From Yuukianura sp. NJ FZ-2021 (Eukaryota), in contig CM102286.1 in NCBI GenBank assembly GCA_046563655.1, positions 1,426,001 to 1,490,000 on the forward strand: a DNA stretch of 64,000 nt, written 5' to 3'. The position numbers and the translations under genes are program-made. Every line of letters begins with the position of its first letter. Position 1 is the first letter of the stretch. This document shows positions 1-26,707 of this stretch, one piece after another. Below the pieces are notes generated by a model, which did no database searches, had not been told where the DNA came from, and worked only from the letters and a program-made list of their open reading frames with translations.

Positions 1-2239
<2,239 letters not shown>

Positions 2240-3892: not shown

Positions 3893-7191
<3,299 letters not shown>

Positions 7192-7503
7192 TCTTAAATC
7201 ATACGGAAACGGAAGTACGTTTTCCAAATTCCAAACGTTCGTTCACAATTCAAAAAAAAATCAAACGTTTACCGTTGACTTTTATCTCTACCTATCAGCT
7301 GTGACAAGAGTGATAAGGTTAATTTTTTAATGGTGATTGTGATTCAATTAACGACGGAATTTCAAGGACACAGTGCCGGAGACAAAGGAAAAGAACACAA
7401 AAATTAAAATTTGAAGTTTGTTTTTGTTTTTCATTTTTTAGTTTTTTGAAACTAAAGAATTTACCGCTAAAATGAAATTAGCGACGTCACTCAAGCGGTT
7501 TCA

Positions 7504-7599
7504 CTAATCACTTTTTGTCGCCCAAAACATAGCTGGGCAAAAAATATTATTTTGCACAAAGACAAAAATGGCGAAAACAACAAAACTAGCCAACGCCAT
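7504..7599 (-). pseudogene. Truncated third paralog of the secreted protein (signal peptide only)
   Basis: Reads MALASFVVFAIFVFVQN then diverges and stops after 31 aa. It matches the N-termini MALSSFIVLAIFVFVQN (11897) and MALLGSIVVLAIFVFVQN (13422). Its upstream region 7600-7830 also matches 11900-12130 and 13430-13660. Confidence 0.75.
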
Positions 7600-7804
7600 T
7601 CTCAAACCTAAGAAACTCTTCTACTTATCTGTCTATTATCTGTCAAATACGATTTTTGTACAATTTTTATATTTCTATAGGGTTTTTAAATTTTAACGTT
7701 TATGATAGTTCAAAGTTTTGATTAACTGTGAAATCGTTGAACTAATTACTTCGCCTTAGATTATTCTAAAATGAATTCGGCCTTGAGCTTTTACGTTTGA
7801 TGTT

Positions 7805-7819
7805 TGACCTCGATGACCT
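7805..7819. promoter_or_regulatory. DR3-type nuclear receptor element candidate (TGACCT-cga-TGACCT)
   Basis: Two perfect AGGTCA half-sites (minus strand) spaced by 3 nt. Equivalent sites are at 12110, 13639 and 16760 in the paralogous promoters. Confidence 0.45.
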
Positions 7820-8178
7820 CAACAAATTGTAGACTAAGCTAAAGATTTTACTCATCTATTTTCTAAAGCGCTACTAATCTATTTTCACCCAAAACTGCGG
7901 CACGTAAGTTATGTTTGTGCAAACACGGTTGACCCAAATACAAAAGACAGAAATTGATGGAAAACGAAGATTATTTGTAGTCTAAAAGGACGTTGACCTC
8001 ATTTCATTACACTTGTTTTATCCGGACTGTAATTTATTGACCTTATTCCATTACTCTGTCCATTGCGCAGAACTTTTCGAATTTCAATTGCAAGCCAAAG
8101 ATGAACGGACTAGGTTAAAGTTTTTTCAAAGAATACAACTAACAATTATTTCAAAATTCTACAAAAACTCATAAAATT

Positions 8179-10469
8179 ATGCCTGCCGGCGGTCAACCAA
8201 GGTTCACATACCATCGTGATTGCCAACAAGCAACATTTGAACCAGTCCAAGGATCAGTAGTCACTGGTAAAATATATAATTTTAATTATTATATTTAGTT
8301 TTAAATAATTTGAATTAATTTGTAAAAGTTACTGCCTCCTGAATTCAAATTTTACTTGGCAGGTCAAATTCCAAAGTGGTTGGAAGGAACGCTGATTCGA
8401 AATGGCCCCGGAATTCAAACGGTGGGAACAGACCGGTTTCAACATTATTTCGATGGACTAGCAATCCTCCATCGTTTTCACATTCACGATGGAAAAGTAA
8501 ATAACAATAAATATAATAATTAAAATAATACTAAAACTAATTTGTTATGAGTTAATTGTTATGTTTAATTAAAATTCAAGGTAACTTACAGCAGTAGACC
8601 ACTCGAAAGTGATTCGTACAAAAACAACATGGCGGCTGGAAAAATTGTGAGCACCGAGTTCGGAACTTTGGGAGAAGCCGACCCATGTGACACTCTGTTT
8701 TCAAAGTAGGAGGATTCAAAATTTCAAAAATTACTACAAAAGCAAAGAAGAAATTTTTAATATTTTTAGCAAAAAATGCTTGTTTGAATAGATTCAAAAG
8801 TATGTTTACTGGCGAAGAGAAGAAGGAATCATGTGACCTGATAACGGACAACTGCAATGTAAACGTTTGTTATTTTGGAGATCAACTCTACGCCATGACA
8901 GAAACTATGTATGTTCGGCGCATCAAACCAGAAAATTTAAAAACTATAGGCGGGAAAACAAATTTGAAAAATTATTTGCCAATTGAGCAAACCTTGGCGC
9001 ATCCTCACATCCTTCCGGATGGAACTGTCATTACAGTTGGCACAAACTACAGACACAAGGCTGGTCCACACTACACCATCGTTAGTATTCCGCCTAGTTT
9101 TAATTCAGATCGTGAGTTTTTCAAATTATGAAATTATGAAATTTTATCAAATCCAAAAGCTCTTTCTCTAAAGTTATTTTTTCAATCCCGAGGTCCCGTT
9201 TTCGAAAATTCGGAAATTATAGCTGAGATTCCGTGTCGCTGGAAGTTGTACCCGTGCTACTCACATTCTTTTTCATTGGCGGGTGACAAAGTCGTTTTTG
9301 TTGAGCAGCCATTTTGTATTAGTGTTCCGAAGTTTATTTTGTCCCAGTTCAAGCGTGCTCCATTTCAGTCAATGCTTCAATGGTGGCCTAATCAAACTGC
9401 AAGTTCAAAATTTTAGCTAAAAAAAAACCCTTTTGGTTTATAACACTAATAACACAATTCGGAAAATCAAATTTTGAAACGTTTGCTTTTGAAATTTCTA
9501 GACCAGAATTCATGTGGTGTCGACTATAGATGGAACGCGACACAAAATTGTTTACGAAGCCAAAAGTTTGTTCATGTTTCATCAAGTCAATGCTTACGAA
9601 GATGACGGACATATCGTTCTCGACCTCTCTGCTTACAACGACGACAACGTTAGCGTTTCGTTTTTAATTTTTTTTTAAACTTTGACAAAATTTTAAGTAA
9701 TTTTTGTTGTCCTTGACAGCTTGTAAAAGCCGCTTTGGAAAATCACAATGTCAATTTCGATATTCGAAATTCCTTCAGACGCTACGTTTTGCCTCTCAAA
9801 ATTCCAAAGGTAAGAGTACAATCATTGTTAAATCTTTGATTCTGGTGACAATACAGTGTTTCCTGCGCAGGATGGGTGCGCAGCTGACCAGAACTTGGTC
9901 AGATTGGAGTCGACTAAGGCACAAGCCAAACTGCGGCCTGGGACGACCAACGTTGTTGACCTCGAGCCCGAGGTCATTCTGAACTCCTTTTTTGAATTAC
10001 CGAAAATCAACTACGAATTCAATGGAAAGAAGTATCGGTATGCCTATGGAGCTTCGTCCATCAACAGTAAACCGGCAGATTCACGATCCCTTATTGAATC
10101 AAATCAAGTAAAATTCATTTAACAAACAAAAAGAAACAATTAAATAGCCCAACGTAATTTTGTATTATGAAGATTTCCAAAATGGATTTGGACCGGCAAG
10201 AAGTGACTTCCTGGACAGCAGGAGAGGAAACGCTCGTGTCCGAACCAGTTTTTGTTCTAAATCCACTTTTAGAAAATCCGGCAGAAGACGATGGCGTTCT
10301 GCTTGTGTCTCTGCTGCATTTGGAAGATGAGAGAAAAGTGACATTGGTCATTCTGGATGCAAAAACTATGGAAGTGGTGAGCAAAGTGGAATTTCAGGCT
10401 GATGGGGCCGTTCCGTCAACGTTACATGGCCAGTGGGCTCATACTGGTCATAAAGTACATAAATACTAA
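8179..10469 (+). CDS. Carotenoid cleavage oxygenase (BCO/NinaB/RPE65 family), copy A, 9 exons
   Basis: [41 protein letters not shown]; four Fe-ligand His ([20 protein letters not shown]); [14 protein letters not shown]...AEDDGVLL. Exons join in frame if intron 5 uses a GC donor at 9399. Confidence 0.9.
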
Positions 10470-10943
10470 TTTCATCAAGTTCCCAAAAATATTTACTTTC
10501 TGTCGAATAATGTTTGAACTTGAGTAGTACAGATTTGGGTTTCAAAACAAAACCCTTTTGTTTAAAAAAATCAAACCAATTTAGTTTAAACTTAACATTT
10601 TTTTTTTGAAAACTCTTTTTACCATGAACATTTTCGTACTTATAGAACACATTTTAAACAAACAACACAACATCGAATCTCCCTTGATACTTTTGGCTAT
10701 GTAAATTTAAGCTTCAAGGCGGAAATTCTCGTTTTTTATTTTGTTTAAATTTTGACCAATGACAAGATAATAAAGCATATGATGAAAAAATTTATTTCAA
10801 TACAAAGCAAAAATAATAGCTAAGGAATTCAAATTGTTGTATTTTGAAATTTAAGAAAAGTTAGCCTCGTAAAAAAATTTCAAACGAAAAAAAAAGTGTT
10901 TAATGGTGTGATGAAAAGTATACTTCAAATTAAGGTGTCGGAA

Positions 10944-11897
10944 CTAAACTCGGTTGATTCTGAGATTGAACCTAATACTGTTTTCATCAGTGCTTACCCA
11001 TTGGTAAAAATCGTTTTCGGATGACCGCGGAGAAACTGCCACAAGATTTTTAGTCCCCAAATTTCGAATTTCAAGCGGACCGAAACCCAAGGTCTTCAAA
11101 CTCCAAAATCCATTTTCGCGATTTTTTGCCAAAGTGTTCCCTTGATCGACATACTGTGGGTCATTGGTCAGCATAAGATAATGTTTTGGTGTGGCAGTGT
11201 CCTGGGGAGACTCAAGGTCAGCGTCCACGACAAGCAGCATGTCTGGATACTTCACATGATGAATTGTAACTACCGAGTCGTCGTCATTTACAAGTTTGAA
11301 TATCCACAGCCCATCTTCAAACCATGCCCCACCAAGAGAATATTTCGATTCCCTAAAAGTAAATATTTAAAGAAAATGGAAATCAAGGTTCATTGACAAC
11401 GAAAAGTTAATTTTCTTTAACAGGTTGGATAATATCTCGCTTGTTGACAAAAGAAACGGACAAAACAAAAAATTAGTACCAATCCAAAAATTGGTACCAA
11501 TTCATATGCTACACTTAAAAAAATTGTTTGACGATGCCCTGAAATGAAATTGGGCAATTTTTGGCAAAATCGAAAAAACATGAGTTATTACCCAATCTGT
11601 TAAATAAAATTAACAAATCAATAAATCAAAAGACCTTGATGGAAATTAAAATTTTTTTTTCAAAAATTGTGATATTTCGAAATACCTATTGGCGTGATCA
11701 TCCAATTGAACGAATTTGGCACCAGACTTTGAATAAACGTCTGCGTATGTCAACAAGTTGAAGCCTGAGCGAAAGTTTTCGTGAATTTGGTACTGCGTTT
11801 CCGTCCATAAGTTTGTATTGGGAATTAATTGCTTTCTGCCTTCTCCATTTTGCACAAAGACAAATATAGCCAAAACAATAAAACTGCTCAACGCCAT
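10944..11897 (-). CDS. Unknown secreted protein, ~205 aa, possibly beta-trefoil, copy 1 (exons 11897-11686 and 11352-10944)
   Basis: Hydrophobic signal peptide MALSSFIVLAIFVFVQNGEG. A phase-2 GT-AG intron joins DDHANR|ESKYSLGGAWFEDGLWIFK in frame with the ORF at 10944-11255. A close paralog lies at 12718-13422. Confidence 0.82.
11384..11638. mobile_element. Non-autonomous DNA transposon (MITE), hAT-like, in the intron of secreted gene copy 1
   Basis: Termini CAAGGT...ACCTTG with a perfect 8-bp target-site duplication ATGGAAAT. It is absent from the ~75-nt intron of copy 2. A second family member is at 54203-54466. Confidence 0.85.
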
Positions 11898-12717
11898 TCT
11901 GAAACACAAGAGACTCTTTTAGTATACATTTTTTTTGTAGCTATTATGTGGATTTTTTAATGAGAGAAATATGGTTTATGAATTTGAAGTTAGAAGTTAA
12001 CTTTTTAACTATCTAAGTTTAAAATCGCCTTTTAAAACTAATTACTTAACCTCAGTAGTTCGTGTGATTACTCCAAAATGAATTTGGCCTTGAATGTAAG
12101 TTAAGGGTATGAACTGGATGACCTCTAAAACTAAAAGAACGGTTTTCGAAAACAAAGTATTGTTTCAAAATTTCAATGAGAAGCGCTCACGACCTCACGA
12201 AAATGTCGAATGCACTGTTTGAAGTGTGTAGTACGGACTTAAGTTTAAAAAAAATAGTACCTTTGTTTAAAAAAACCAAACCAATTCAGCTTAAAATAAA
12301 ATTTCTGCTTTTGTTGAGTTTACAAAAGCTCACAAACGTTTTTGAAAAATTTTGCATTTTCTGCTTTTGTTTTAATTTTCTAAGCTGTATCTAAAAAAAA
12401 CTATAGAATGACGTATGGGCTTTTCTCCCTTGCGCCAATTTAAGCGTAAAACAAAAACAATTTCTCCTCTTTGTACGATGAATATTTTTGAACAAAATTA
12501 TGCACGACTAAAATCAAAATGGATCCCAAACGTATCGCTTTCAAATATTGAAATTCAGAAACTAGTGAATTTTATTTCAGTAAATGAGAAGGAGTTTCAA
12601 AAAAAAAATTAAGCTTTCAAAATTATTATGATTTTAAATTGAGTAAGTTTGTTAGCAGAAAATGTTTAAAATTAAGCATTTTGAAATGTTTTGAAGAGAA
12701 TTGAGATTAGGTCAGAA

Positions 12718-13422
12718 CTAAACTGCGTTGATTCTAAAGTTGAACGTGCTGCTTTCTTCATTCGTAGTTGTAACCCATTGGTAATAATCATTTTCAGATA
12801 ACCGCGGAGAAACTGCCACAACATTTCCATCTCCCAAATTATGAATTTGGAGCGAATCGTCTTCGTCTTCCCGTGTCCTCAAATCCCAAAATCCATTTTG
12901 ACGATCTCGTGCCAAATCGTTCCCTTGATCAACATATCTTGGGTCATTGGTCAGCATAAGATAATGTTTGGCTGGGACCTTCCCCTGGGGGGAATCAAGG
13001 TCAGCGTCCACGACGAGCAGCAAGTCTGGATACTTCACGTGATGGATTGTTACATATCCCTCGACGTTATTCTCAAGTTTGAATGTCCAGAGTCCATCTT
13101 CAAACCATTCCCCGCCACGAGCATATTTGAACTCCCTAAATGTATATTTTTAAAGAAAGTTAGAAAATTTTGAACATATATTTTTAAAAAATTAAGATTT
13201 TTGGAAATACCTGTCGGCGTGATCGTCCAGTTGAACAAATTTGACACCAGACTTTGGCTTAACGTCTGCGTAGGTCAACAAGTTGAAGCCTGAGCGACGA
13301 TTATCATGAATTTGGTACTGCGTGTCAGTCCATAAGCCTGTACCCAGAATCTGCTCTTTTGCTTCTCCATTTTGTACAAAGACAAAAATGGCCAAAACGA
13401 CAATACTGCCCAACAACGCCAT
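12718..13422 (-). CDS. Unknown secreted protein, ~209 aa, possibly beta-trefoil, copy 2 (exons 13422-13211 and 13135-12718)
   Basis: Signal peptide MALLGSIVVLAIFVFVQNGEA. Same intron position and phase as copy 1. Shared blocks SGFNLLTYADV, WFEDGLW, HHVKYPD.LLVVDADL, KHYLMLTNDP.YVDQGN, VAVSPR.SEND.YQWV. Confidence 0.82.
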
Positions 13423-14166
13423 TCTGAAAATATAAGACAAAATTTTAATACATATATTTTTAAAAAATTTTAGGTTTATATAGGATTTTAAAATTCTAAA
13501 ATTTGATAGGTTAGTTCAAAGTTAATTAGTAAGTTAACTTCGATTTTTAAATCGTTGAACTAATTGCTTAACCTCAGATTAGTTTAATGTAATTACTTTT
13601 AAATGAATTTGAGATTGCCCTATGTTTGAACGAATCTTTGACCTTGACGACCTTAGAAAGTATAGAAATGACTTTCAAAAAAGCTTGGTTTCAAAGTTCA
13701 AAGTGAAGCTCTCTCTACTACCACGCACAAATATCGGATGACCGTTGGCCTCCCTGGGTTGAACGTATTTTTGAACTTTAAAGCAAAATTCCATTTCTTC
13801 TTTTTTTAAACGTAGCCATTCAAATAACCTCACCTGAAATAAGCTAGTGTACTTTTTCTTTGAAATTGATCTATTTTTAACATTTGAGGCACAGATTCTT
13901 GTTTTTAGTTTATTTACCCATATGCAAACAGGCCATGATGAGATGATTTTTTCCGGTCATTGCTTGTTATTGTAATTGTAAGATACACAGTACTGACCTT
14001 AACAGAAAGATGATTGCTTTATCTTAGTCGTTTTTTACAATAACATATGTGAACATGTAAAATTACAGCTTGGTTTATCGTGTTCAATGCAAAGTCAAAA
14101 CATTTCGAGTGTCAGTTGTCACTGTCAGACAGAGTTGAGCTGACCAGGCTAGGATTTTTCCAGAAA

Positions 14167-16476
14167 ATGAAACGAAAATTGTTTCAAAATTTTACGAAAT
14201 TTCATAAACTTATGTCTGCCAGATATCGGACAAAGTTCACATACCATCGTGATTGCCAACAAGCAACACTGGAACCAGTACAAGGATCAATAGTCACTGG
14301 TAAAATATAATTTAAATTATAATCCTTATTAGCTTTTTCGTTATAATTTGAATTTAGAAAAGTTAATTGTCTCCTGAATTCAAATTTTGCTTGACAGGTC
14401 AAATTCCAAAGTGGTTGGAGGGAACGCTGATTCGAAATGGCGCCGGAATTCTAACGGTGGGAACAGACCGGTTTCAGCATTTCTTCGATGGATTAGCAAT
14501 CCTCCATCGGTTTCACATTCACGATGGAAAAGTAAATAACAATAAATATAATAATAAAAATAATACTAAAACTAATTTGTTGAGATGAGTTAATTGTTGT
14601 GTTTTATTGAAATTCAAGGTAACTTACAGCAGTAGACCACTCGAAAGCGATTCGTACAAAAAGAACATGGCGGCAGGAAAAATTGTTGTGAGCGAATTCG
14701 GAACTCTGGGAGAGCCTGACTCATGTGAAACCCTGTTTTCAAAGTAAGAGGATTCAAAATTTCAAAAATTGACAAATAAAAAGAAGAAGAAAATTTTAAA
14801 TTTTTTAACAAAAGATGCTTGTTTGAACAGATTCAAAAGTGTGTTTACTGGCGGAGAGAAGCAGGAATCACGGGATACTACAACGGACAACTGCAATGTG
14901 AACGTGTGTTATTTTGGAGATCAACTCTACGCCATGACAGAAACTACGTACGTTCGACGCATCAGTCCAGTAACCTTGAAAACTATAGGCGGGAAAACAA
15001 ATTTGAAAAATTACTTGCCAATTGAACAAGCCTCTGCGCATCCTCATATTCTTCCAGATGGAACTGCTATTACAATGGGCACAAATTACAGACATAAGGG
15101 TGGTCCACACTACACCGTCATCAGTATTCCACCTAGGGTTAATACAGATCGTAAGTTTTCAAAATTATGAAACTCCTTCTTTCGAATTCTAGTTGAAATT
15201 TTGATACTTTTGGTTCTTAAGGTCCGGTTTTCGAAAATTCGAAAGTTGTTGCTGAAATTCCGAGTCGTTGGAAGTTGTATCCTGCCTACTCACATTCTTT
15301 TTCTCTGGCGGGTGACAAAGTCGTTTTTGTTGAGCAGCCATTTTGTTTCAGTTTTCCGAAATACATTCTAAAAAACTTCAAACGTGAACCATTTGAGTCA
15401 CTGTTCCAATGGTGGCCTAATCAAACTGTAAGTTCTCAATTTTAGCTTATACAAAACCGAAATTTATATTCAAAATTTTGAAACGTTCCCTTTTGAATTT
15501 TTTAGACGAGAATTCATGTTGTGTCGACTGTAGATGGAACACGACACAACATTATTTACGAAACGAAGAATTTGTTTATGTTTCATCAAGTCAATGCTTA
15601 CGAACAACATGGACATATCGTCCTCGACCTCTCTGCTTATAACGACGGCAATGTAAGCATTTCGATTCTAGAATTTTTTTTTCAATTTTGATAAAATTTT
15701 GAATAATTTTTTTTGTGTTCTTGACAGCTCGTAAAATCCGTTCTGGGAAATCATAAAGTCGAATGTGATTTTCGAAATTCCTTCAGACGCTATGTTTTGC
15801 CTCTCAAAATTCCAAAGGTAAGAGTACAATCATTGTTAAATTTTTGATTCTGTTGGCACTGAAGTGTTTCCTGCGCAGGATGGCTGCGCAGCTGACCAGA
15901 ACTTGGTCAAATTGGAGTCGGGTAAGGCACAAGCCAAACTGCGGCAGGGCACGACCAACGTAGTTGACCTTGACCCCGAGGTCATCTCGAACTCCCTTTT
16001 TGAATTTCCTAGAATCAATTACGAATTCAATGGAAAGAAGTATCGATTCGCCTATGGAGCTGCTTCCTCTGTCACCAGTCAACAACAAGGTCCACAATCT
16101 CTTCAGGATCCAAATCAAGTAAAATTTTCCAAATTTAAAAAAAAAGGAATTTTATGTCCAACTTTTTTTAATTTCAAAGATTTCCAAAATTGATTTGCAT
16201 CGACAAGAAGTGACTTCCTGGACAGCAGGAGAGGAAACGCTCGTGTCCGAACCAGTTTTTGTTCGAAATCCACTTTTAGAAAATCCGGCCGAAGATGATG
16301 GTGTTCTGCTTGTGTCTCTGCTGCACTTGGAAGATGAGAGGAAAGTGACATTGGTCATTCTGGATGCAAAAACTATGGAAGTTGTTAGCCAAGCGGAATT
16401 CAAGGCTGATGGGGCCGTTCCGTCAACGTTACACGGAAAATGGGCTCAACATGGACATAAAATACACAAATACTAA
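14167..16476 (+). CDS. Carotenoid cleavage oxygenase, copy B, 9 exons (ATG at 14167 or 14212)
   Basis: Same exon structure and motifs as copy A ([45 protein letters not shown]). All donors read GT. Confidence 0.9.
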
Positions 16477-17312
16477 TTTAAGCTATGCCGCAAAAATATT
16501 TATTTTCTGAAAACATAAGAACCATTTGGCAAGTCATTTTAATCAAAAAGAAATATAAATTATAACTTCGAAAATGATTTTTTTTATCTTTGACTTCACC
16601 TTAGAAAGTAAGGAAACAACTGTCAAAAGAAACTTGGTTTCAAATTCCAAAGTGGAAACTCCCTATACCACATCACGCAAATGTCAAATGGCCTTTGACG
16701 TATCCGGATTGCACACATTTAAGCTACAACGCAAAAATCCACTCCTTTAAACTAATCTTTGATCTTCATGACCTTAGACAAAAAAGAAATAAAACTGTCA
16801 AAGAAAGCGAGGTTTCAAACTTCAAAGTGACGAAATTTTCCGGTCGCCTTCTCGGTCGCACCGCTTACGCTTGAATCCAGAAAGCAATACTCTAATGTTG
16901 TTGTTTTCTTTAAATAGTTTATTCATTCAAATAATCTCAGCTGAAATTTTAAGCTTGTGTGGTTTTTTTAAATTTGAAATATTTTTTACATTTGAACATC
17001 GAAGTGTCACAGATTTTAGATTTTTTTTTTTTTTTTTTTTTTGTAAATTTCGTCAAATAGGTATGACGTCAATTCTTGGGTTGAAGGACATTTAAAATGT
17101 GCATCGCTGACCTGACTTTGATTAAATGACGTTTGCATTATCCGCGGCTTTTTACAGCACAAAGGCAAAATATAAATTCATATCACTTTGGTTTATAACG
17201 CTACCCAATGTCTAAACCTTTTCGGATGTCATTTCTCAACCAGGGCTGAACTGATCAGGTTAACATTTTTTCCGAAAATAAAACCAAAATTATTTCAAAA
17301 TTTCATAAAATT

Positions 17313-19809
17313 ATGCCAGCCAGAGCCCAAACAAAGTTCACCTTCCACCGCGATTGTCAACAAGCAACACTTGAACCGATTCAAGGATCTATAATCACAG
17401 GTAAAACATCGTTTTAAATATGATTCTATATTAACTTTTTTTAATTTAAATTAATTGAATGTCCCAAGGTAATGTCTTCTGAATTCAAATTTTACTTGAC
17501 AGGTCAAATTCCAAAATGGTTGGAGGGAACGCTGATTCGAAATGGCGCCGGAATTCAAACGGTGGGAACAGACCGGTATCACCATTTCTTCGATGGACTA
17601 GCAATCCTCCATCGTTTTCACATTCACGATGGAAAAGTAATTAAACAATAAATATAATAATTAAAACAATACTATAGTTCATTTTTTTATTCTGTGCAGT
17701 TGGTAAAATCAATTGCATTGTCGCTCTTATGGAGATTTTCATTTTTTTGAAAACACAACCACCATGCTGTTTACATGGCGTTTTCCGAAAAATCGAAAAA
17801 CACAATGTTAATCGTCCATAAGGCGATTGGAACAGTCCAACTGCACAGAATAAAAAAATGAACTATAAAACTAATTTGTTATGATGAGTTAATTGTTGTG
17901 TTTAATTAAAATTCAAGGTAACTTACAACAGTAGACCACTCGAAAGTGATTCGTACAAAAAGAACATGGCGGCGGGAAAAATTGTTGTCAGCGAATTCGG
18001 AACTCTGGGAGAGCCTGACCCATGTGACTCTCTATTTTCAAAGTAATTAGAATCAAAATTTCAAAAATTGACAATTCTAAAAAAAAGAAGAAAATTTTAA
18101 ATTTTTTAACAAAAGATGCTTGTTTGAACAGATTCAAAAGTGAGTTTACTGGTGAAGAGAAGCAGGAATCTCGCGACACTCCAACAGACAACTGCAATGT
18201 CAACGTGTGTTATTTTGGGGATCAACTCTACGCCATGACAGAAACTATGTTCGTTCGCCGCATCAGTCCAAAAAGTTTGAAAACTATAGGCGGGAAAACA
18301 AATTTGCAAAATTATTTGCCAATTGAACAAGCCTCTGCACATCCTCATGTTCTCCCTGATGGAACTGTCATCACAATTGGCACAAACTACAGACACATAC
18401 GTGGTCCACACTACACAGTCATCAGCACTCCGCCTACCTTTAATACAGAACGCAAGTTTTTCAAAATTATGAAATTCAAAAAAAGCAAGGTCCAATTTTC
18501 TGAAAAGGTTTTTTCCTTGACTCAGGTCTGGTTTTTGAAAATTCGAAAGTTGTTGCTGAAATTCCGAGTCGTTGGAAATTATACCCTGCGTACATACATT
18601 CATTTTCTTTGGCGGGTGACAAAGTCGTTTTTGTGGAGCAGCCATTTTGTTTTAGTTTTCCGAAATTTTTTTTGAACTTCATCAAGCGTGCACCATTTGA
18701 GTCTATGTTTCAATGGTGGTCTAATCAAACAGTAAGTTCAAGATTTTAGTGAAATCGAAACACAAGTTTTTATATAAAACAATTTTGAAAATCAAATTTT
18801 GAATCGTTGGCTTTTGAATTTTTAGACTAGAATTCATGTAGTGTCGACTGTAGATGAAAAGCGACACAAAATTATTTACGAAACCAAAAATTTGTTTATG
18901 CTACATCAAGTCAATGCTTACGAAGAAGATGGACATATCGTCCTAGACGTTTCTGCTTTCAACGACGGCAATGTAAGCGTAACGTTTCTAATTTTTTTTT
19001 TTAATTTTAAATTTTTTAAAATAAAATTTTATAAAATTTTGAGTAACTTTTGGTGTGCATGATAGTTCGTAAAAGCCGCTCTGGGAAACAACAATGTCGA
19101 ATGTGATATTCGAAATTCCTTCAGACGCTACGTTTTGCCTCTCAAAATTCCAAAGGTAAGAGTACATTGTTAAATTTTTGATTATTGTAGCACTGAAGTG
19201 TTTCCTGCGCAGGATGGCTGCGCAGCTGACCAGAATTTGGTCCAATTGGAGTCGAGTAAGGCACAAGCCAAACTGCGACATGGCACAACCAACGTGGTTG
19301 ACCTTGACCCCGAGGTCATCCTGAACTCCTTTTTTGAATTCCCCAAAATCAACTATGAATTCAATGGAAAAAAGTATCGCTATGCCTATGGAGCTTCGTT
19401 CATCCACAGTCAACCTCTAGATTCTCGAGCACTTTTGGATCCAAATCAAGTAAAATTTGAAAATTCAAAAAAAAGACAAAAAAAAAACAATATTTTTTTT
19501 TTAATTTCAAAGATTTCCAAAGTTGATTTGGATCGACGAGAGGTGATTTCATGGGCAGCAGGAGAGGGGGAGGTTGTTTCCGAACCCATTTTTGTTCTAA
19601 ATCCACTTTTAGAAAATCCGGCGGAAGACGATGGCGTTCTGCTTGTGTCTCTGCTGCATTTGGAAGATGAGAGAAAAGTGACATTGGTCATTCTGGATGC
19701 AAAAACTATGGAAGTGGTGAGCAAAGTTGAATTCAAGGCTGTTGGCGTCGTTTCATCAACGTTGCATGGAAAATGGGCTCAATTTGGACATAAAATACAC
19801 AAATACTAA
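17313..19809 (+). CDS. Carotenoid cleavage oxygenase, copy C, 9 exons
   Basis: Same exon structure and motifs ([35 protein letters not shown]). Intron 4 donor is GC at 18452. A MITE sits in intron 2. Confidence 0.88.
17675..17865. mobile_element. MITE with TA target-site duplication (Tc1/mariner-like) in intron 2 of oxygenase C
   Basis: Perfect ~29-bp terminal inverted repeats TAGTTCATTTTTTTATTCTGTGCAGTTGG ... CCAACTGCACAGAATAAAAAAATGAACTA flanked by TA. The empty site (aatacTAaaactaatttg) is present in copies A and B. Confidence 0.9.
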
Positions 19810-20061
19810 TTTCGTAAGTTAGCAAGAAATATTTACTTACTGTAAACGTAGATACAATTGCTTAATTCAATTAAAATTAAAGTACAAAAACTTCACTTAG
19901 AGAATTTTGTCATTGAATTTCTTATTTCAGTCCAACTTGTTTAGTCATATTAGTAAAATTAAGTTTAAATTAAATTAAATTAAGTTAAAATTAAGTACAA
20001 TATGTTAAAAAAAGTAAAAAAATTAGTGTCAATAGTATTAAAATTTTTCCAAAAACAGTTT

Positions 20062-21383
20062 TTAGTCCACAAGTTTAACGAAACCGGCCGATTGATGCCG
20101 AGTGGAGCTTGACAAAAAGCGATTGTTTCCATCAATCACTGCTTCCGAAATATCCAAAAATTTAACTAACTGTGGATCGTGTGCAAACTTTTCAAGAAGT
20201 GAATCACGCAAAACCAAAAAATCATCAATTTCGTCACTGATGAGGACACACATTTGGTCAACGGCAGTCTCCAGCGGAATGCCTTTTTCCACCACTTTGA
20301 AAACAACCAAGTTGTCCATTTCGTTTTTTCCAAATTCGTTTTGCATTCCAAGTAAATCATTCGTGAGTCCACAAATGGAATTGACGAGATCCAGCAGTCT
20401 CCGAATACTTGAACAGTTTTTGATCCTTCCAGGAAGATCAGTTTGTCCACTCTCCAAAATCCAGCTAGTGATTACACAGATGTCAAAGTAGTTTAAAATC
20501 ATGCGATAGTTTCGATAACTTTCTTCTTGACATGATCCATCAATTGGACAAGCAGCGTTGCGCACCATGGCATTAAAGTATCTTTGAAGGGAAAATTCAA
20601 TTTGTCCGCCCATTTTATCTCGATATCCAGGATAAAGTGATTCAAACTCGAGATAAGAATCTTGAAAAGCGTGAAATAAGAAACCATAAATTGGAAATTG
20701 TGGAACATCTACAAAGATTTGGCGGTGATTTCGAATGAGCTGAATTAATCCGATGGTGGCAGTTTGAATCACGGTGGCAGGGACTGTTAAAACGGCCTCT
20801 TCCATGGCATTATCCAAAATATAGTAAGTGTAGCCCATTTTTAGCGCCATTTTCATTCGAATACTCTCCATTTCCTGGAATGGATACACCACAGCTTGAA
20901 ACTGGGTCAGAACTTCTTCCATTCCACTGAAAAGTTTTGAATTTGAGTTGTTCCCGATGAACCTTTCAACCCAATCCTTCAGAAATTTCTTCATAATTTC
21001 CATTTCTTGAGAAGTGATGACCTTGGCGCGTTCAAATCGTGGTTGAATTCGAGGAAATTGACCTTTGACATGAACAGTTCCAAAGTGTTGGTTCGTAAGT
21101 TTTCCAAAATCAAATTCAACTCTTCCCGCCAGCGGCTTTTTACAGAATTCGTTGGACACTAGAAACCCAAAAGTACAATTTTTGACATTGTGTTCGGAGA
21201 ACTTTTAAAAATGTTATCCTTACCTTGTATTGCTGCACTTTTGTTAAAATTTTGTTCAAACAAGTTTGGTTTTGAAAGTGGAATTTGATACTTTCCAGTA
21301 CTCCGCATAGTGAAATTTGAGTAAGCAAAATGCTTCAAATTGGTCAAACAATTCAACAAAGTGAATCGCTTCATTTGGTTCAT
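20062..21383 (-). CDS. Class I terpene cyclase-like protein (microbial-type, single alpha domain), copy 1; exons 21383-21224 and 21158-20062
   Basis: Asp-rich motif variant YYILDNAMEE; pyrophosphate-sensor Arg (YRNYR) about 48 aa before the NSE-type motif NDLLGMQNE; downstream DNLV; C-terminal RH at the RY position. A 65-nt GT-AG intron joins AAIQ|VSNEFC in frame. Confidence 0.8.
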
Positions 21384-21848
21384 ATTTTAGAACTTTTTTA
21401 GTGCTAAATATGTTCACTTTGACTTTGATGCTGCTTACAGTTGGACTTTGTTTAAAAAACTGAAAATGGAACTTATGATTTAGGACAACAACCTTCTTCC
21501 TTCACTTATCTAAGGCTTATAATATTTTTCAACTTCAATTATTCTTCTTTCAAAACCCTAAACTTAGCTAGTTTTTTTTTTGTACAACCCCTATTTCAAA
21601 AAAAGAGTTTGCTTAAAAAAAAGATGCGTTCAAGGAACCTAACGACTTTTTTGTAACTTCGAAGCCCTTGACTTTGAATTTTAAAGATTGAAGTGAATTT
21701 CCAAAGGAAATTTGAATAAAGACATTTCAAATTCTATTTTGGGATAGGTTAGCGTCGTATATTTCAAAACTAATTTAAATTTGGCGCTTGCGTCAATAAG
21801 CAAGAAATGTTTAATTTATTAATAACAACTTATTTTATTACTAATAAA

Positions 21849-22190
21849 TTTTTTTTTTTTTTTTTTTTTAGTTTTCTGAGAATTTTTATTTCACAGTCAC
21901 CTGCCAAAGGCAGGTTGAGAAAAGAAGTAGGATTTAAATTAGATTATAATATGAATAATTCGTAAAGATCTTTTCCTGAGGGTAAGGTTCCCAAGATTGA
22001 GCAGGAATTTCCGCGTTGAACAGCTAGGCTTATTCGTTGTAGGAAGAAGGTCGTGGCTCGTTTATCTCCAGATGTTTCTGACAGCCGATGTCCGATTTGT
22101 TTTAGTAGACGAAGACCTTCGGATCCGAATACACCTGATGTCTCGACGGCAATGATGGATACCACGAAGCGAGATTCTAGGTCACGATAG
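21849..22190 (-). mobile_element. 5'-truncated non-LTR retrotransposon (CRE-like, restriction-like endonuclease C-terminus) with poly(A) tail
   Basis: Peptide YRDL...IAVETSGVFG...FLQRISLAVQRGNS.SILGT, then AATAAA (21890-21885) and a 21-nt poly(A) (T-run 21849-21869). Candidate TSD TAATAAA at 21842-21848 and 22191-22197. Confidence 0.8.
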
Positions 22191-22218
22191 TAATAAATAA
22201 TAAATAATTATTCTTACT

Positions 22219-23453
22219 TTAGTCAATTATTTTAATCAAACCGTTAGACTTATGCCGGTCAGATGCTGCAAAATATCGATTGTTTCCATCAATCACTGCT
22301 TCTAAAATATCCAAAAATTTAACTAACTGTGGATCGTAAGCAAATTTATGAAGAAGTGAATCACGCAAAACCAAAAAATCATCAATTTCGTCGCTGAGGA
22401 GAACACACATTTGGTCAACGGCAGTCTCCAGCGGAGTGCCTTTTTCAACCACTTTGAAAATAACCAAGTTGTCCATTTCGTTTTTTCCAAATTCGTTTTG
22501 CATTCCAAGTAAATCATTCGTGAGTCCACAAATGGAATTGACGAGATCCAGCAGTCTCCGAATACTTGAGCAGTTTTTGATTCTTCCAGGAAGATCAGTT
22601 TGTCCACTCTCCAGAATCCAGCTTATGATGGCACTGGTATCATAGTATTCCAATGCAACACGGTAATTTCTGTAAGATTCTTCCTGAGAAGTACCGTCAA
22701 TTGGCGACACAGCATAGCGGAGTATTGCATTCAAGTATCGCTCAATTGAAAATTCAAATTGCCCCATTTTGTTTTGGTATCCAGGATAAAGTTTTTCAAA
22801 ATCTTGATGTAAATCCAGTAAGGATTGGAACAAAAAACTGTAAATTGGAAATGCTGGAACATCTTCGTAAATATGAGCTGGGTTTCGAATTAATTGAAGG
22901 ATTCCTTGCGTGGCAGATTCAAGCACTGTGGCAGAAACTGTTTCAATGGCATTTTCCATTGCATTATCTAAAATCCACGACCAGTAGACCGATTTTAGCG
23001 CCATTTTGAGCTCGGTGCTTTTAATCTCCGGAAATGGATACAAAAGAGGAACGAAAATTGCCGCCGTTTCTACCATGCCGTCGAAGAATTTGGAATTTGT
23101 TCGATTTTGAATGAATTTGTCAGTCCAACGACCCAAGTATGACTGCAAGTACTGCTGTTCTACTGGGTTGACCTCGTAACGTTGATACCTTCCTTGTATC
23201 CGAGGAAATTGACCTTTGACATGAACCGTCCCAAAACGTGGGTTTGTTAGGCGCCCAAAGTCAAATTCAACTTTTCCTGCCAACTGCCTTCTGCAAAACT
23301 CATTTGCAACTGAAAATAATAAAAACCAATTTTTTTTAATACAGTACCCAGGATTGATTACAACAATGCCAAAAATAACGTACATATAAAGTTATAAAAA
23401 TTAAAACACTTTTTTAAAGTTACTTTTTTTTAACCTTTTCTTGCCACCGACAT
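22219..23453 (-). CDS. Class I terpene cyclase-like protein, copy 2; main exon 23309-22219, tentative short first exon 23453-23435
   Basis: SWILDNAMEN, YRNYR, NDLLGMQNE, DNLV, YFAASDRH. The acceptor TTTTCAG|TTGCAAAT is at the same position as in copy 1. The first exon (MSVARK) is uncertain. Confidence 0.8.
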
Positions 23454-24092
23454 TCCTTTACACTTTACGTTTTGTATTAAAACACATGTGGTTGATTAGT
23501 TTTCATTTTTCGGATGTACTCCAGTTGTGGAATCTATTTTTATTGAGAACAATATCCAAGCTTTTCAAACATGTGGTTGATTTTTCAAAAAAAAAAAAAA
23601 TGAAATCGTTTTCTTCAGAATAGCATGGTTTAAATATGACCAAAAATGCACCAAGCAGTGATCATTTTAGATAAGTTAATGACTTTAGTAATTAAGAAAA
23701 TTCATTTGCTAATTACCCTGAACACAAAATCATTAACGCCAACAATTACTTTTGGGTTCGATATTATTGTATCAAGGAAGGATTCCAGATAGAAAATGCG
23801 GCTTACAAGTTCCTTAGATCCAGTTAGTTAACTTACGATTAACTTACGATTAGTTAACGTTTGATTAATTCGTCATGAATTTTAGAATTCTTAAATAAAT
23901 TAAAAGTGTTGATTTTTTTCCCCAGGAAAATCCATATCTGACAAAATGACAGTTACAGAAGAGAAGCTTTTAGTCCAACTCAAAAACATGTGGAATGGAA
24001 TCTTAGAAACGTAAATAAACAACGTTGAAAACTCATAGTAACCGGCTTTTATACCACATTCGAAATCGTAGGTAGGAAGGAAGAGATCAATC

Positions 24093-26707
24093 ATGAATTC
24101 ATTAGAGGAACGGATGGAATTAATTAAGCAGAAAAGTAGCAACGAGGAACAGCAAGGGCGGAATCCAAAGGAGTTGGTAAGTGTCTTCGTTTATAAAACG
24201 TTTTTGAGGATAACAGCAATTTAATAGCCTGTTTATTAATAACCCAATAGACTCAAGTGAGGCGGACGGGAGACTGGAGTGCGGATTCCAAATTGTGTTC
24301 AATCAACAATGGTTGGTGGGATGATCCATTCTTTCAACGATTAAATATCGGCTGGGATTCGGATTTTGTTCCAACTCCGCGCCGAACATCACTAATCTGT
24401 TTTGGTTACTTCGTTCGCTTTCGAGTTTGCGACTACTTTTTGCGACAATTCTTGTCTTGTACCAACGAACCAGTACAGGTTGAATACTTTTTATTGTGTC
24501 CGTTAATTTTAATGAACTTTAATGCGGCTCGTAACTGTTGCTTTCATTTAGATTGTTTCCTTGGGATGTGGACTGGACAGTTTATATTTTCGACTCCTCG
24601 AAAAGCATGGGGAAAACATTTCAAAATTTTTTGACTTTGACTATCCTACTGTCATTTTTAAGAAAAACGAGACTATAGAAAATGACCCAATGTTGTATAA
24701 ATTGGCAAAAACGAAATTGGTCTTTGTACCGGCAGATCTACGGTTTATTCATACAACTGGTTCGGATTTATTACGATCACAAGGATTCGACTTCAACGCA
24801 CCAACAATTTTCTACTCCGAATGCGTAGTCAATTATCTCCAGCCCGAAGAGTAAGAGGTTTAGTCTCACTAGTGCAGTACTAGTTGAGCATTAGCACTAC
24901 TTTTGGTTGCGATAACCATGCTCGATTCAGGCAAGAAACATTTCATTGAAGGTGTATTTGTTATATTATTTAGGAGTGATCATATTATACGCTGGATAAG
25001 CGAAAACGTTCCGAGAAGTATCTACTTCGCTTACGAACAAGCCAATCCGCTCGACTCTTTTGGCAGGATCATGACGAAACACTTTGAGAAAAATGGTTGT
25101 CCGATTCACTCGGTCCATTCCAATGGAACTCTCGAGGAACAACGTCTCCGGTTACAACGACACGTACGACGTCCAATTCTTTTTTCCATACATTGAATCA
25201 ATAGTTTATCATCATTTTTTTTAATTGCAGAAATTCCATCACAGCTTTGCAATCAATGCTTGGGACGCTTTCAGCGTAATAATTAAAACCGAATCAAATC
25301 CTGTTCCAGGTCGGGTATCTTTTGATGAATTCGAACCTCTCATCGCCACATCTCTTCACTTCTCTGTTCGAATCGGAATCACAGAGCAAATGAGCTTCAC
25401 ACCCGAAGATCATCCGCCGCGGTTTCTCATGCCATTCACTCTATTCAGTCAGAAGCCATTGGTAGGACTACGTACCGCTTTGAGCATTGACAACATCAGA
25501 GGATTTACGTTTAAAAGTGACCTGAAGATCTCAGGTCATACAAGTGTAGCTGTAGGCAACAGTATATGGCTCATCGGAGGAAGAAATCAAGCATCAGTGT
25601 TACAGTTCCGGATTGCCAGGATTAGTTGCTCCCTGTCAGCTGATGGATTTCACGTTACGTCTACGTTAATGAACGAAAACGATGCTCTAGCCAGAAGTTA
25701 TAGTGGTGCTGCATACTGTGCAAGTACAGACACTGTTTTCGTTTTTGGTGGAAGAAAGTCTCCAGCGTCTCCAGTTCTGAGCAGTATTCGAATTTCAAAA
25801 GCCTCTTCAGACTCCCCGGTTGTAAACGTTCATGTGCGTGACTCTGATGCCATTACGCCTTTTCCATCATGGCGCTTCGCTGTAACTGAGTACATAGATG
25901 ACGAAGCTGGACTCTCAGGCGTATTTGTCCTCGGTGGAAAATCTGACGACGTAAGTAAAACGTTTTCGTTTCCGAAAGTGTTAGATAGACTTAAGCTGTG
26001 ATTGTAATTTTATACTGGTTTTGATTTTCAGTTAAACTACGACATTCACAAGATGAGGCACAGATACCTCTGGCATCGACCGATGGATAACTTAGCAGAT
26101 CAGGGTTGGTCTGGTATGGAATTGTATCCTTCGGAAAAATTTCCCTCTCCAAGGCATTCCCATGCCATGTGCGCCTGCCCATTACGATATTCCATTTTTG
26201 TCGTTGGAGGAATTTCAGCGGTTGGAAACGGTACAACGCTGTGTGAAGATTCACTTTGGGAGTACAGTTTCAGACGACTAGGCTGGATTCGATGGAGTGA
26301 ATTTGAAGGCTTCGGAAGAAAAGTTGGACATAAAGTGGTATGGCACGGTGACCTTTTGCATATCATCGGTGGTTACGGTAACGACCGAGACTGTAACCTA
26401 GAAACGTTTATTACAACGGTCAACTTCGAAACTAAGAAAGTTCAGGAATTTGAACTGGTAAGATCAAGAGAATCTTTGATAATTTTTCAAAAACTTCCTT
26501 TTTTTTAAAACTTTTTCTGAAAATTGAACTTAGGAATTGCCTCGACCAACTTTGTTTCTACCGTTCGACTTTTCTGCTCACGTGATCCGACCAAACGGAA
26601 GTGACGATGACTGTTTAGTGGTGCTCGGTGGTGGTGGAAACTGTTTTTCATTCGGCTCTCACTACAACACGGAATGTTTTCTGTTCAAACTTCCTCTCGA
26701 GCCGTAA
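24093..26707 (+). CDS. LCMT2: tRNA wybutosine-synthesizing protein 4 / leucine carboxyl methyltransferase 2, multi-exon
   Basis: LCM domain (RRTSLICFGYFVR, QIVSLGCGLDSLYFRL, FDFDYP, ECVVNYL, YEQ...DSFGRIM, FDEFE), then Kelch repeats (LIGG, VFGGR, PRHSH..VVGG) and terminal GGGGNCFSFG. Confidence 0.88.

Follow-up and report, generated by a model that had tools for sequence, protein, structure and literature searches.

Terpene synthase, carotenoid-cleavage oxygenase and secreted-protein genes in one springtail gene block: probably adjacent tandem arrays rather than a single pathway

Introduction

In octocoral terpene clusters, the cyclase is reportedly accompanied by genes for a P450, a dehydrogenase and an acyltransferase. 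The block described here resembles these clusters in that an animal-encoded class I terpene cyclase lies inside a compact, non-housekeeping block. It differs in having none of the three octocoral partners. The neighbours of its terpene synthase (TPS) genes are instead carotenoid-cleavage oxygenase (CCO) genes and genes for a secreted protein (SEC), with independent duplication histories.

Another known arrangement is the bacterial 2-methylisoborneol-type pair, a GPP 2-C-methyltransferase plus a terpene cyclase. Both kinds of gene occur on a metagenome contig (L002), where 1.5 kb separates a relative of the present TPS genes (35% identity) from a GPP 2-C-methyltransferase homologue (E 4.5e-72, PDB 3vc1). 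Unlike in a bacterial operon, the two L002 genes are divergent and widely spaced. The present locus differs from the bacterial pair, as a search of the window for a GPP-methyltransferase homologue found none.

Canonical springtail terpene synthases are already in the literature, where they form a clade of their own that includes active enzymes (PMC11665903, PMC13638087). A first-pass annotation of this locus had listed animals with microbial-type terpene cyclases; springtails, published and characterised in the same papers, are missing from that list and have to be added to it. The springtail enzymes FcTPS2/5 and AfTPS2 (PMC11665903) and ScTC1-5 (PMC13638087) share the PF19086 family with the two synthases of this block, TPS1 and TPS2. 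They are likewise animal-encoded, with an intron in 55% of 277 published genes (PMC13638087), as in the window TPS, and they likewise occur as tandem duplicates. In contrast, TPS1 and TPS2 are highly divergent from the named members and carry RH in place of RY. DDXXD is reported for the five characterised Sinella enzymes (PMC13638087), whereas TPS1 and TPS2 have D-N-x-x-E.

The gene block and its flanks

The window, that is, the whole 64-kb stretch of DNA analysed, holds a block bounded by the following two genes.

5918..7242, - strand: left flank, 5' exons of a Gcn5/KAT2-type histone acetyltransferase gene with PCAF_N (Pfam)
24251..26505, + strand: right flank, LCMT2/TYW4-type gene, leucine carboxyl methyltransferase plus Kelch repeats (Pfam)

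Between them lie three CCO genes (+ strand), two SEC genes (- strand), a truncated third SEC copy and two TPS genes (- strand). Pfam profile matches and gene models recover every gene family named in the first-pass annotation in its place, and both profiles that it had proposed for searching, RPE65 and Terpene_syn_C_2, match. Its naming of the flanks, Gcn5 on the left and LCMT2/TYW4 on the right, was also correct: PCAF_N is matched in the former (E 2.6e-35 at 6155-6694 and 7e-13 at 5918-6139), and LCM (E 1.5e-18 at 24552-24851) and Kelch families (25225-26505) in the latter. In the remainder of the 64 kb, Pfam searches of ORFs of at least 62 aa return kinase/SH2, PCAF_N, LCM/Kelch, NUDIX, zf-MYND and 7tm_2 domains alone; no P450, dehydrogenase, acyltransferase or prenyltransferase was found among these ORFs.

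The only two database matches of the Gcn5 exon are KAT2B of Orchesella cincta (62%) and of Folsomia candida (53%). Together with the TPS relatives described below, they identify the host of the block as a springtail (Collembola). One relative was found by DNA (run X4); it is near-identical and is silent on deep synteny.

Contigs of run X5 splice the Gcn5 flank exons together across introns. They also span CCO1-3, SEC2 and TPS1, with exons joined across GT..AG introns. For example, three modelled introns of CCO3 are skipped (18450>18526, 18731>18829 and 19449>19513, the last GT..AG), one contig covers the SEC2 region 12665-12903, and another terminates exactly at the modelled TPS1 exon-1 donor, 21224. 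The spliced contigs are evidence that CCO1-3, SEC2 and TPS1 are transcribed; X5 is not on record as RNA.

Carotenoid-cleavage oxygenases

8179..10469, + strand: CCO1, 9-exon RPE65-family gene, 547 aa (model with GT/GC-AG introns, Pfam)
14212..16476, + strand: CCO2, 9-exon RPE65-family gene, 548 aa (gene model, Pfam)
17313..19809, + strand: CCO3, 9-exon RPE65-family gene, 547 aa, with a GC donor at intron 4 (model, Pfam)

Pfam RPE65 (PF03055) matches exons of all three genes (E 7.6e-07 to 1.5e-26), and the models are intact, with 0 internal stops. The four iron-binding His and two Glu are kept in 32-33 of 33 aligned CCOs, CCO1-3 included. The copies share 82-83% DNA identity over 2.0-2.5 kb including introns (82.7% across 2463 bp for CCO2 against CCO1). 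Their dS is 0.33-0.37, and pairwise dN/dS of 0.22-0.29 marks purifying selection.

In a quick tree, with support from SH-aLRT only, CCO1-3 group together as a single clade (SH-aLRT 100), whose stem is long at 1.03 substitutions per site. This clade is sister (SH-aLRT 99) to krill and lobster proteins named 'carotenoid-cleaving dioxygenase, mitochondrial-like / BCO2-like', and insect NinaB is placed apart from it. CCO1-3 thus appear to belong to the crustacean BCO2-like branch rather than to insect NinaB. The crustacean proteins (krill, Panulirus, Homarus) are also the best full-length matches, with 36-40% identity over the last two exons, and have the four His and the Glu positions conserved. 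The springtail genes differ from them in the long stem and in their arrangement as three copies in tandem, each of which formerly stood head-to-head with a gene for a secreted protein. Insect NinaB (carotenoid isomerooxygenase) shares the Pfam family and the catalytic residues; since CCO1-3 fall outside its clade, they are by this tree not the visual-chromophore orthologue. No paper on springtail CCOs was found in the literature searched.

Secreted-protein genes

10944..11897, - strand: SEC1, 2-exon gene (11897-11686, 11352-10944), 206 aa, signal-peptide-like (gene model)
12718..13422, - strand: SEC2, paralogue of SEC1 (13422-13211, 13135-12718), 209 aa, signal-peptide-like (gene model)
7504..7833, - strand: truncated third SEC copy, a 31-codon ORF (7599-7504) that keeps the signal peptide alone, plus the 5' region (blastn)

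SEC1 and SEC2 are 70% identical (dS 0.47, dN/dS 0.39), and both have a hydrophobic N-terminus resembling a signal peptide. Pfam at E<=10 gives chance-level matches only for the SEC1 family; an Atlas feature search yields beta-trefoil families as a weak lead for SEC1. In the truncated copy, which is absent from the first-pass annotation, 7549-7833 aligns by blastn with the 5' regions of SEC2 (13369-13666, 65%) and SEC1 (11847-12130, 66%). By contig depth, the 333-bp intron of SEC1 contains a high-copy repeat (about 11384-11560). This repeat and a second one described below are likewise additions to the earlier feature list.

Terpene synthases

20062..21383, - strand: TPS1, 2-exon microbial-type class I terpene synthase homologue (21383-21224, 21158-20062), 418 aa (Pfam, model)
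22219..23385, - strand: TPS2, second terpene synthase homologue, in which the exon common to TPS1 starts at 23309 (Pfam)
21849..22207, - strand: high-copy repeat or retroelement fragment with a 21-nt poly-A tail, between TPS1 and TPS2 (contig depth)

Two large exons on the - strand match Pfam Terpene_syn_C_2 (PF19086), namely 20062-21204 (E 1.9e-11, 44.5 bits) and 22219-23391 (E 4e-11, 43.5 bits), against a gathering score of 23.7 bits. The two proteins are 67.7% identical over 362 codons, with dN/dS 0.30. Their homology stops at the acceptor site, and a search for TPS1 exon 1 upstream of TPS2 gave no match (best E 0.055). The 5' end of TPS2 is unsure: it could be a contiguous ATG at 23385 or a further exon upstream. 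In the repeat between the two genes, the T/A run lies at 21849-21869. The bin 21624-22274 has 15-30x the depth of neighbouring bins in runs X1 and X2, and the 87-codon ORF at 21944-22207 has no Pfam match.

Divergence of the pair is uneven. dS is about 1.5 in the first 120 aligned codons, 0.77-1.5 in the remainder of the N-terminal two-thirds and only 0.08-0.15 at aligned codons 241-330. Gene conversion has homogenised the C-terminal third.

Among 20 matches looked up, the named relatives are Folsomia candida proteins only (22-23% identity, full length). The closest relatives are metagenome proteins (33-36%). None of the six metagenomic contigs that carry these closest relatives has a CCO or SEC gene, but at 1.0-6.2 kb the contigs are too short to exclude such a neighbour.

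Because D-N-x-x-E stands in place of DDxxD/E, the label of ordinary terpene cyclase is not secure for TPS1 and TPS2. One reading, compatible with the others considered below, is that with the second Asp lost, metal/diphosphate binding is weakened or changed, so that the proteins act on another substrate, are slow, or are non-catalytic. Both copies have D-N-A-M-E, whereas the relatives covering this motif have DD in 50 of 54 cases and DN in 0 of 54, and both have RH for the C-terminal 'RY' pair, as do just 5 of the 65 relatives spanning those columns. Four of five springtail enzymes were active in vitro, and the inactive one has fully canonical motifs (PMC13638087). We nevertheless consider this reading unlikely. 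The DN lies in the old, non-converted part (dS 0.85-1.5) and is kept in both copies, and the dN/dS argues for retained function. The Asp-rich motif keeps its first Asp and its final acidic residue, and neither the N-D...E of the NSE motif nor the sensor Arg has been lost. Most of the family (38/68) has Gly at the middle NSE position, which is also seen in active sponge enzymes (PMC9992776).

Duplication history and upstream regions

13423..14211, unstranded: SEC2-CCO2 head-to-head intergenic region, 789 bp, putative bidirectional promoter (alignments)

The SEC2-CCO2 intergenic region may be a bidirectional promoter, and parts of it recur upstream of the other oxygenase genes. Upstream of CCO3 there is a copy of this region (13625-14201 aligns to 16746-17312 at 63%, and 13634-13799 to 16586-16747 at 71%). 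Upstream of CCO1, a stretch at 8068-8178 aligns to 14096-14211, and there is a copy of the SEC 5' region; the truncated SEC copy stands head-to-head with CCO1. These alignments show that SEC and CCO were duplicated jointly as a head-to-head unit, at dS 0.33-0.47. The TPS pair, with dS of about 1.5, is much older, and the TPS and SEC/CCO units have separate duplication histories of very different ages. The upstream regions of the TPS genes share no sequence words with those of the CCO and SEC genes above shuffled controls.

Independent arrays or one pathway

The block is probably a set of adjacent, independent tandem arrays, in which lineage-specific springtail accessory genes have piled up through tandem duplication between housekeeping genes as two separate units; we give this reading a probability of roughly 0.65. 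The first unit would be the head-to-head pair of SEC (-) and CCO (+), which two or three rather recent rounds of copying turned into SEC-remnant/CCO1, SEC1, SEC2/CCO2 and CCO3. The second would be the old pair of canonical class I TPS genes. The units are arranged tail to tail, with the stops of CCO3 and TPS1 252 bp apart, and probably have no functional coupling; no result obtained here points to a common pathway. Against this reading, three families within 16 kb and nothing else between them have the look of a metabolic or secretory island, and the X5 contigs touch all three families in one sample, which allows co-expression.

The first-pass annotation had placed the cyclases and CCOs in one pathway or in a co-produced secretion. 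This proposal has no positive support, though it is not refuted: the duplication histories and ages of TPS and CCO are separate, the window lacks the usual tailoring or precursor-supply genes, and neither common upstream words nor a CCO or SEC gene on the six short TPS contigs links the families. Its authors knew of no animal cluster of cyclase and CCO, and our literature search agrees in finding none described.

A co-regulated 'secretion island' with no common pathway is a doubtful alternative. In this scenario the block would lie in one chromatin domain, and the same cells, of a gland or of the epidermis, would produce terpenes, apocarotenoids and a lectin-like secreted protein. The compact block without a housekeeping gene fits this idea, as does the X5 coverage of CCO1-3, SEC2 and TPS1, but no run is on record as RNA, and the contigs cannot rank expression. 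The head-to-head SEC/CCO arrangement and the duplicated intergenic region suggest a bidirectional promoter for those two families, yet no upstream words tie the TPS genes to that unit. The repeat insertions and the truncated gene copy fit relaxed gene turnover equally well.

It is quite improbable that the block is a true biosynthetic cluster, in which CCOs cleave or isomerise the cyclase skeleton to nor- or seco-terpenoids, which the secreted protein might help to deliver: besides the separate histories, the lack of upstream words common with CCO/SEC, the missing octocoral-type partners and the absence of CCO from the short related contigs, TPS and CCO are convergent, neither co-directional nor head-to-head. 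Characterised CCO substrates are conjugated polyenes or aryl-alkenes (carotenoids, apocarotenoids, stilbenoids), and no CCO is known to attack the isolated double bonds found in mono-, sesqui- or diterpene hydrocarbons. In its favour, a separately assembled X2 contig (Logan; 19704-20167) bridges the adjoining 3' ends of CCO3 and TPS1, although X2 comes from the sample that gave the best DNA match, so that the contig is not independent support. The seven genes are all intact and evolve under purifying selection, the stem of the CCO clade apart from NinaB allows a changed substrate, and the unusual D-N-x-x-E is anciently common to both TPS genes. Such a cluster would be new in print.

Implications for springtail biology

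With the block read as independent arrays, the CCOs would most likely cleave dietary carotenoids or xanthophylls oxidatively to apocarotenoids, and the SEC product would be a secreted, Cys-free, all-beta protein. For the terpene synthase family, the methyltransferase pair on L002 shows a chemically sensible partner. TPS1 and TPS2 would most likely ionise a prenyl diphosphate (in the C10-C25 range shown for springtail enzymes elsewhere) and convert it by cyclisation into hydrocarbon or alcohol terpenes, and these products would serve cuticle lipids, defence or signalling.

Gene content of the block and its flanks

The DNA of the window is AT-rich and eukaryotic (GC 0.32-0.42), with short spliceosomal introns. 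The first-pass annotation described a block of duplicated accessory genes between Gcn5 and LCMT2/TYW4, and both its flanks and its gene content are borne out. Pfam finds RPE65 on three genes (carotenoid-cleavage oxygenases, CCO1-3) and PF19086 on two (terpene synthases, TPS1 and TPS2), and two genes for proteins with signal peptides (SEC1 and SEC2) could be modelled.

Genes of the block and its flanks
Left flank: PCAF_N (Gcn5) gene, by Pfam
7599-7504, minus strand: truncated third SEC copy, a 31-codon ORF with 5' homology at 7549-7833, by sequence homology
8179-10469, plus strand: CCO1, 9 exons, 547 aa, no internal stop, Pfam RPE65 (PF03055)
10944-11897, minus strand: SEC1, 2 exons, 206 aa
12718-13422, minus strand: SEC2, 2 exons, 209 aa
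14212-16476, plus strand: CCO2, 9 exons, 548 aa, no internal stop, Pfam RPE65 (PF03055)
17313-19809, plus strand: CCO3, 9 exons, 547 aa, no internal stop, Pfam RPE65 (PF03055)
21383-21224 and 21158-20062, minus strand: TPS1, 2 exons, 418 aa
22219-23309 or further (5' end uncertain), minus strand: TPS2, PF19086
Right flank: LCM + Kelch (LCMT2/TYW4) gene, then a NUDIX gene, by Pfam

The Gcn5 exon has only two matches among 5.8 billion proteins, KAT2B of Orchesella cincta (62%) and of Folsomia candida (53%). Together with the Folsomia candida relatives of the TPSs (below), these matches assign the window to a springtail. Elsewhere in the window, Pfam identifies an SH2 + tyrosine-kinase gene (206-1562, minus strand), a NUDIX/NADH-pyrophosphatase-type gene (27097-27832, minus strand), a zf-MYND exon (29946-30212, minus strand), and a secretin-family 7TM receptor exon (52878-53225, plus strand). 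None of these kinase, NUDIX, zf-MYND, and 7TM genes is tied to isoprenoid metabolism. Two long open frames match no Pfam family at E<=0.1: 46172-47398 (minus strand, 409 aa) and 44299-45018 (plus strand, 240 aa).

Contigs assembled from sequencing runs locate two high-copy sequences within the block. One is a repeat at about 11384-11560 inside the SEC1 intron, and the other is an element between the TPS genes with a 21-nt poly-A tail and an 87-codon ORF that has no Pfam match. Summed contig depth in run X1 reaches about 24,600 in bin 11208-11858 and about 6,800 in bin 21624-22274, where the second element lies, against about 240-540 in neighbouring bins. Run X5, although listed as 'DNA?', is cDNA-like, as its contigs skip GT..AG introns in Gcn5 and CCO3. 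Its contigs, which leave most of TPS2 uncovered, serve here for exon junctions and coverage and not for expression level. Contigs of the related DNA run X4 are short and near-identical to the window, and are therefore uninformative on conservation.

Carotenoid oxygenases of a crustacean type

The CCO genes were modelled with crustacean CCO proteins as guides and with GT/GC-AG sites conserved among the copies. Single exons match RPE65 (PF03055) with E down to 1.5e-26, and three CCO3 junctions are confirmed by intron-skipping X5 contigs (18450>18526, 18731>18829, and 19449>19513, the last with GT..AG ends). GC-AG introns occur in CCO1 (intron 5, 9399-9400) and CCO3 (intron 4, 18452-18453), each of them confined to a single paralogue, and the one in CCO3 is spliced in an X5 contig. 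All three copies carry the family profile together with four His (His186/247/318/534 in CCO1 numbering), the iron ligands of this family, and the second-shell Glu412/473; these residues are kept in 32-33 of the 33 aligned CCOs.

The copies share 82-83% DNA identity over 2.0-2.5 kb, introns included, and 81-84% protein identity; pairwise dS is 0.33-0.37 and dN/dS 0.22-0.29. In a quick maximum-likelihood tree (IQ-TREE, 39 CCO rows, SH-aLRT support only), CCO1-3 form one clade (SH-aLRT 100) on a long stem (1.03). This clade is sister (SH-aLRT 99) to malacostracan proteins of krill and lobster annotated as 'BCO2-like / mitochondrial-like'. It lies outside the clade (support 100) of insect NinaB, the visual-cycle isomerooxygenase, and by this tree CCO1-3 are not NinaB orthologues. 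Springtails appear, as far as the tree goes, to keep and expand a crustacean-type branch of carotenoid oxygenases distinct from insect NinaB. Literature searches found no paper on springtail CCOs.

The secreted proteins and the SEC/CCO module

SEC1 and SEC2 begin with a hydrophobic, signal-like segment, and their mature part is free of Cys. Searches of their exons against Pfam (E<=10) and the PDB (phmmer, E<=10) return only chance-level matches (best PDB E 0.7), and AlphaFold models are unusable, with pLDDT of 41 from a single sequence and 33 from a two-row alignment. The sole lead to a family is a language-model Atlas comparison, which gives beta-trefoil families (RicinB_lectin_2, AbfB, CDtoxinA, Inhibitor_I66, and Fascin) at 0.96 for both proteins, but recognition is low (1933 and 1983) and no more than 150-152 features are shared.

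SEC2 and CCO2 lie head to head across a spacer of 789 bp, and copies of parts of this spacer precede CCO1 and CCO3. CCO1 also faces, head to head, a SEC 5' end that retains a signal-peptide ORF. From the recurring spacer and the SEC 5' end opposite CCO1, the unit that was duplicated is evidently the SEC/CCO pair. This duplication is modest evidence for a regulatory link between SEC and CCO, and not between TPS and CCO.

Terpene synthases: family, structure, and history

Both TPS genes belong to PF19086 (Terpene_syn_C_2) and to the springtail TPS clade: their two large minus-strand exons score 44.5 and 43.5 bits against a gathering score of 23.7, and TPS residues 39-390 align by phmmer to relatives that include proteins of Folsomia candida. 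A word-indexed protein search with TPS2 gave no match at E<=0.001 among 1795 candidates, whereas an exhaustive HMMER search of 1.84 billion representatives recovered only 79 relatives, of which the best reach 34% identity. Among the 20 TPS2 matches looked up, Folsomia candida is the only named organism, and one protein is labelled '(+)-germacrene D synthase'.

An X5 contig terminates exactly at the modelled donor of TPS1 exon 1 (21224). Compared by tblastn with the region upstream of TPS2, this exon has no convincing match (best E 0.055). A 5-codon first exon upstream of TPS2, with an ATG near 23733, was rejected on reasoning, since its donor phase is incompatible with the acceptor.

The TPS genes are part of the animal's own genome, since intron-bearing animal genes lie on both sides, TPS1 itself has an intron, and a Logan contig spans the 3' ends of CCO3 and TPS1, although this contig derives from the sample that also gave the best DNA match and is not independent of it. 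Springtail TPS genes are known from two surveys. PMC11665903 (2024) describes canonical TPS genes in Collembola, with active enzymes from Folsomia and Allacma. PMC13638087 (2026) counts 277 TS genes in 21 of 26 springtail genomes, forming their own clade and bearing introns in 55% of cases; four of five Sinella enzymes tested were active, on substrates from FPP to GFPP.

Over 362 codons TPS1 and TPS2 share 67.7% identity, and their dN/dS is 0.30. Divergence along the pair is uneven: sliding-window dS starts at about 1.5 over the first 120 aligned codons and is 0.77-1.5 over what remains of the N-terminal two-thirds (protein identity 43-68%). At aligned codons 241-330, where the NSE motif lies within a stretch of about 100 codons, it drops sharply to 0.08-0.15 (identity 92-97%), against 0.77-1.66 in the windows upstream.

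Low-dS stretch of the TPS pair
21100-20200 in TPS1 versus 23300-22300 in TPS2, both minus strand: delimited by sliding-window dS

High N-terminal dS beside this low-dS stretch indicates that the TPS duplication is old and that the NSE-motif stretch was recently homogenised by gene conversion.

Both proteins read D-N-A-M-E in place of the Asp-rich motif DDxxD/E of helix D; its leading Asp and its closing acidic residue are retained. Of the 54 relatives that cover this motif, 50 have DD and none has DN. As both copies share it and it falls within the older portion of the pair, the DN state is long-standing and no fresh lesion. Fungal sesquiterpene synthases mutated at the second Asp may retain some activity, at a reduced level; what a literature search on replacing this residue returned concerns the 'second aspartate-rich motif' instead. 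The NSE/DTE motif, (N/D)Dxx(S/T/G)xxx(E/D), is present as N-D-L-L-G-M-Q-N-E in both enzymes. Its middle-position Gly is the commoner state of the family (38 of 68 relatives) and also occurs in active sponge enzymes, according to PMC9992776. The C-terminal pair, RY in 49 of 65 relatives, is RH here and in 5 of those relatives. An Arg that aligns with the W-R-R position of relatives is presumably the diphosphate sensor, an assignment made from alignment and family knowledge, not from structure. Catalytically unusual TPSs are a separate reading, compatible with those that follow; the DN and RH states make it conceivable, but we regard it as unlikely.

One pathway or two neighbouring arrays

We consider it probable (roughly two chances in three) that the block consists of two independent tandem arrays that abut by chance in a turnover-prone interval. 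One array would be the old springtail TPS pair and the other the younger duplicated head-to-head SEC/CCO module. It is doubtful that the block is instead a co-regulated secretion island whose genes have no pathway in common.

The first-pass annotation proposed that cyclases and CCOs share one pathway. The block is compact and made exclusively of accessory genes, every gene is intact and constrained, X5 contigs cover members of the CCO, SEC, and TPS families, and both enzyme families are atypical, with the DN motif in the TPSs and the long stem of the CCOs. Nevertheless, the proposal finds no support in duplication ages, gene orientation, partner genes, or upstream words. The TPS and SEC/CCO units were duplicated separately and at very different ages, and TPS1 and CCO3 converge on each other. 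Among ORFs of at least 62 aa in the 64 kb window, a cut-off at which small exons may escape, none belongs to a P450, SDR, acyltransferase, prenyltransferase, or methyltransferase gene. The block thus differs from octocoral-type clusters, in which a cyclase is accompanied by P450/SDR/acyltransferase or precursor-supply genes. The words (k = 9-11) that TPS upstream regions share with those of CCO and SEC are A/T-rich, and they are about as many as 100 shuffles give, their number falling inside that range or close to it. CCOs act on conjugated polyene or aryl-alkene bonds and are not known to cleave the isolated olefins of small terpenes, which also counts against the proposal.

The closest TPS relatives in other DNA point the same way. 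None of the six metagenomic contigs that carry them has a CCO or SEC, although these contigs are short (1.0-6.2 kb), were found with a 6-row alignment (33-46% identity), and derive from a single metagenome. On one of them, L002, the TPS relative adjoins a chemically sensible partner instead, a homologue of geranyl diphosphate (GPP) 2-C-methyltransferase. Taken together, a shared cyclase-CCO pathway is improbable.

Gene pair on metagenome contig L002
542-1576, minus strand: TPS relative
3072-4172, plus strand: GPP 2-C-methyltransferase homologue

The two genes are divergent and 1.5 kb apart, on a contig with GC of 0.385 and low coding density. The TPS relative is 35% identical to the window TPSs. 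The methyltransferase homologue matches PDB 3vc1/4f84 at E 4.5e-72 and is extended at its N-terminus by about 90 aa of hydrophobic sequence.

Least probable of all is a co-regulated chemical-ecology locus in which D-N-x-x-E cyclases and fast-evolving non-NinaB CCOs would act on one isoprenoid pool, the CCOs cleaving, for example, a higher terpene or polyene that the cyclases produce or alter, and the secreted, beta-rich protein encoded head to head with them serving as carrier or partner.

Relation to published work and significance

The first-pass annotation knew of no cyclase and CCO cluster in animals, and literature searches likewise returned no paper on one. In their accessible text, the surveys PMC11665903 and PMC13638087 do not report TPS gene neighbourhoods and do not mention CCO neighbours of springtail TPS genes; the word 'carotenoid' occurs once in the former and not at all in the latter. 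As far as these sources go, the window is the first look at the genomic surroundings of springtail terpene synthase genes. It yields three small new points, namely the DN motif, a hexapod expansion of crustacean-type CCOs, and the SEC/CCO module; its genes otherwise belong to known kinds.

A shared pathway, if true, would carry animal terpene gene clusters past the corals and open a new substrate class for carotenoid oxygenases, but the present evidence is unsupportive. A co-regulated locus, if true, would give animals their first terpene-synthase/CCO cluster and likewise bring a new CCO substrate class. If L002 is from a soil arthropod, it would hold an animal-encoded methyl-terpene (2-methylisoborneol-type) gene pair, of which our literature search found no report. 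For enzymology, the naturally fixed D-N-x-x-E variant of the metal-binding motif, retained by both old paralogues, offers an easy target. For functional linkage within the block, the head-to-head pair of oxygenase and secreted protein is a better candidate than the pair of synthase and oxygenase.
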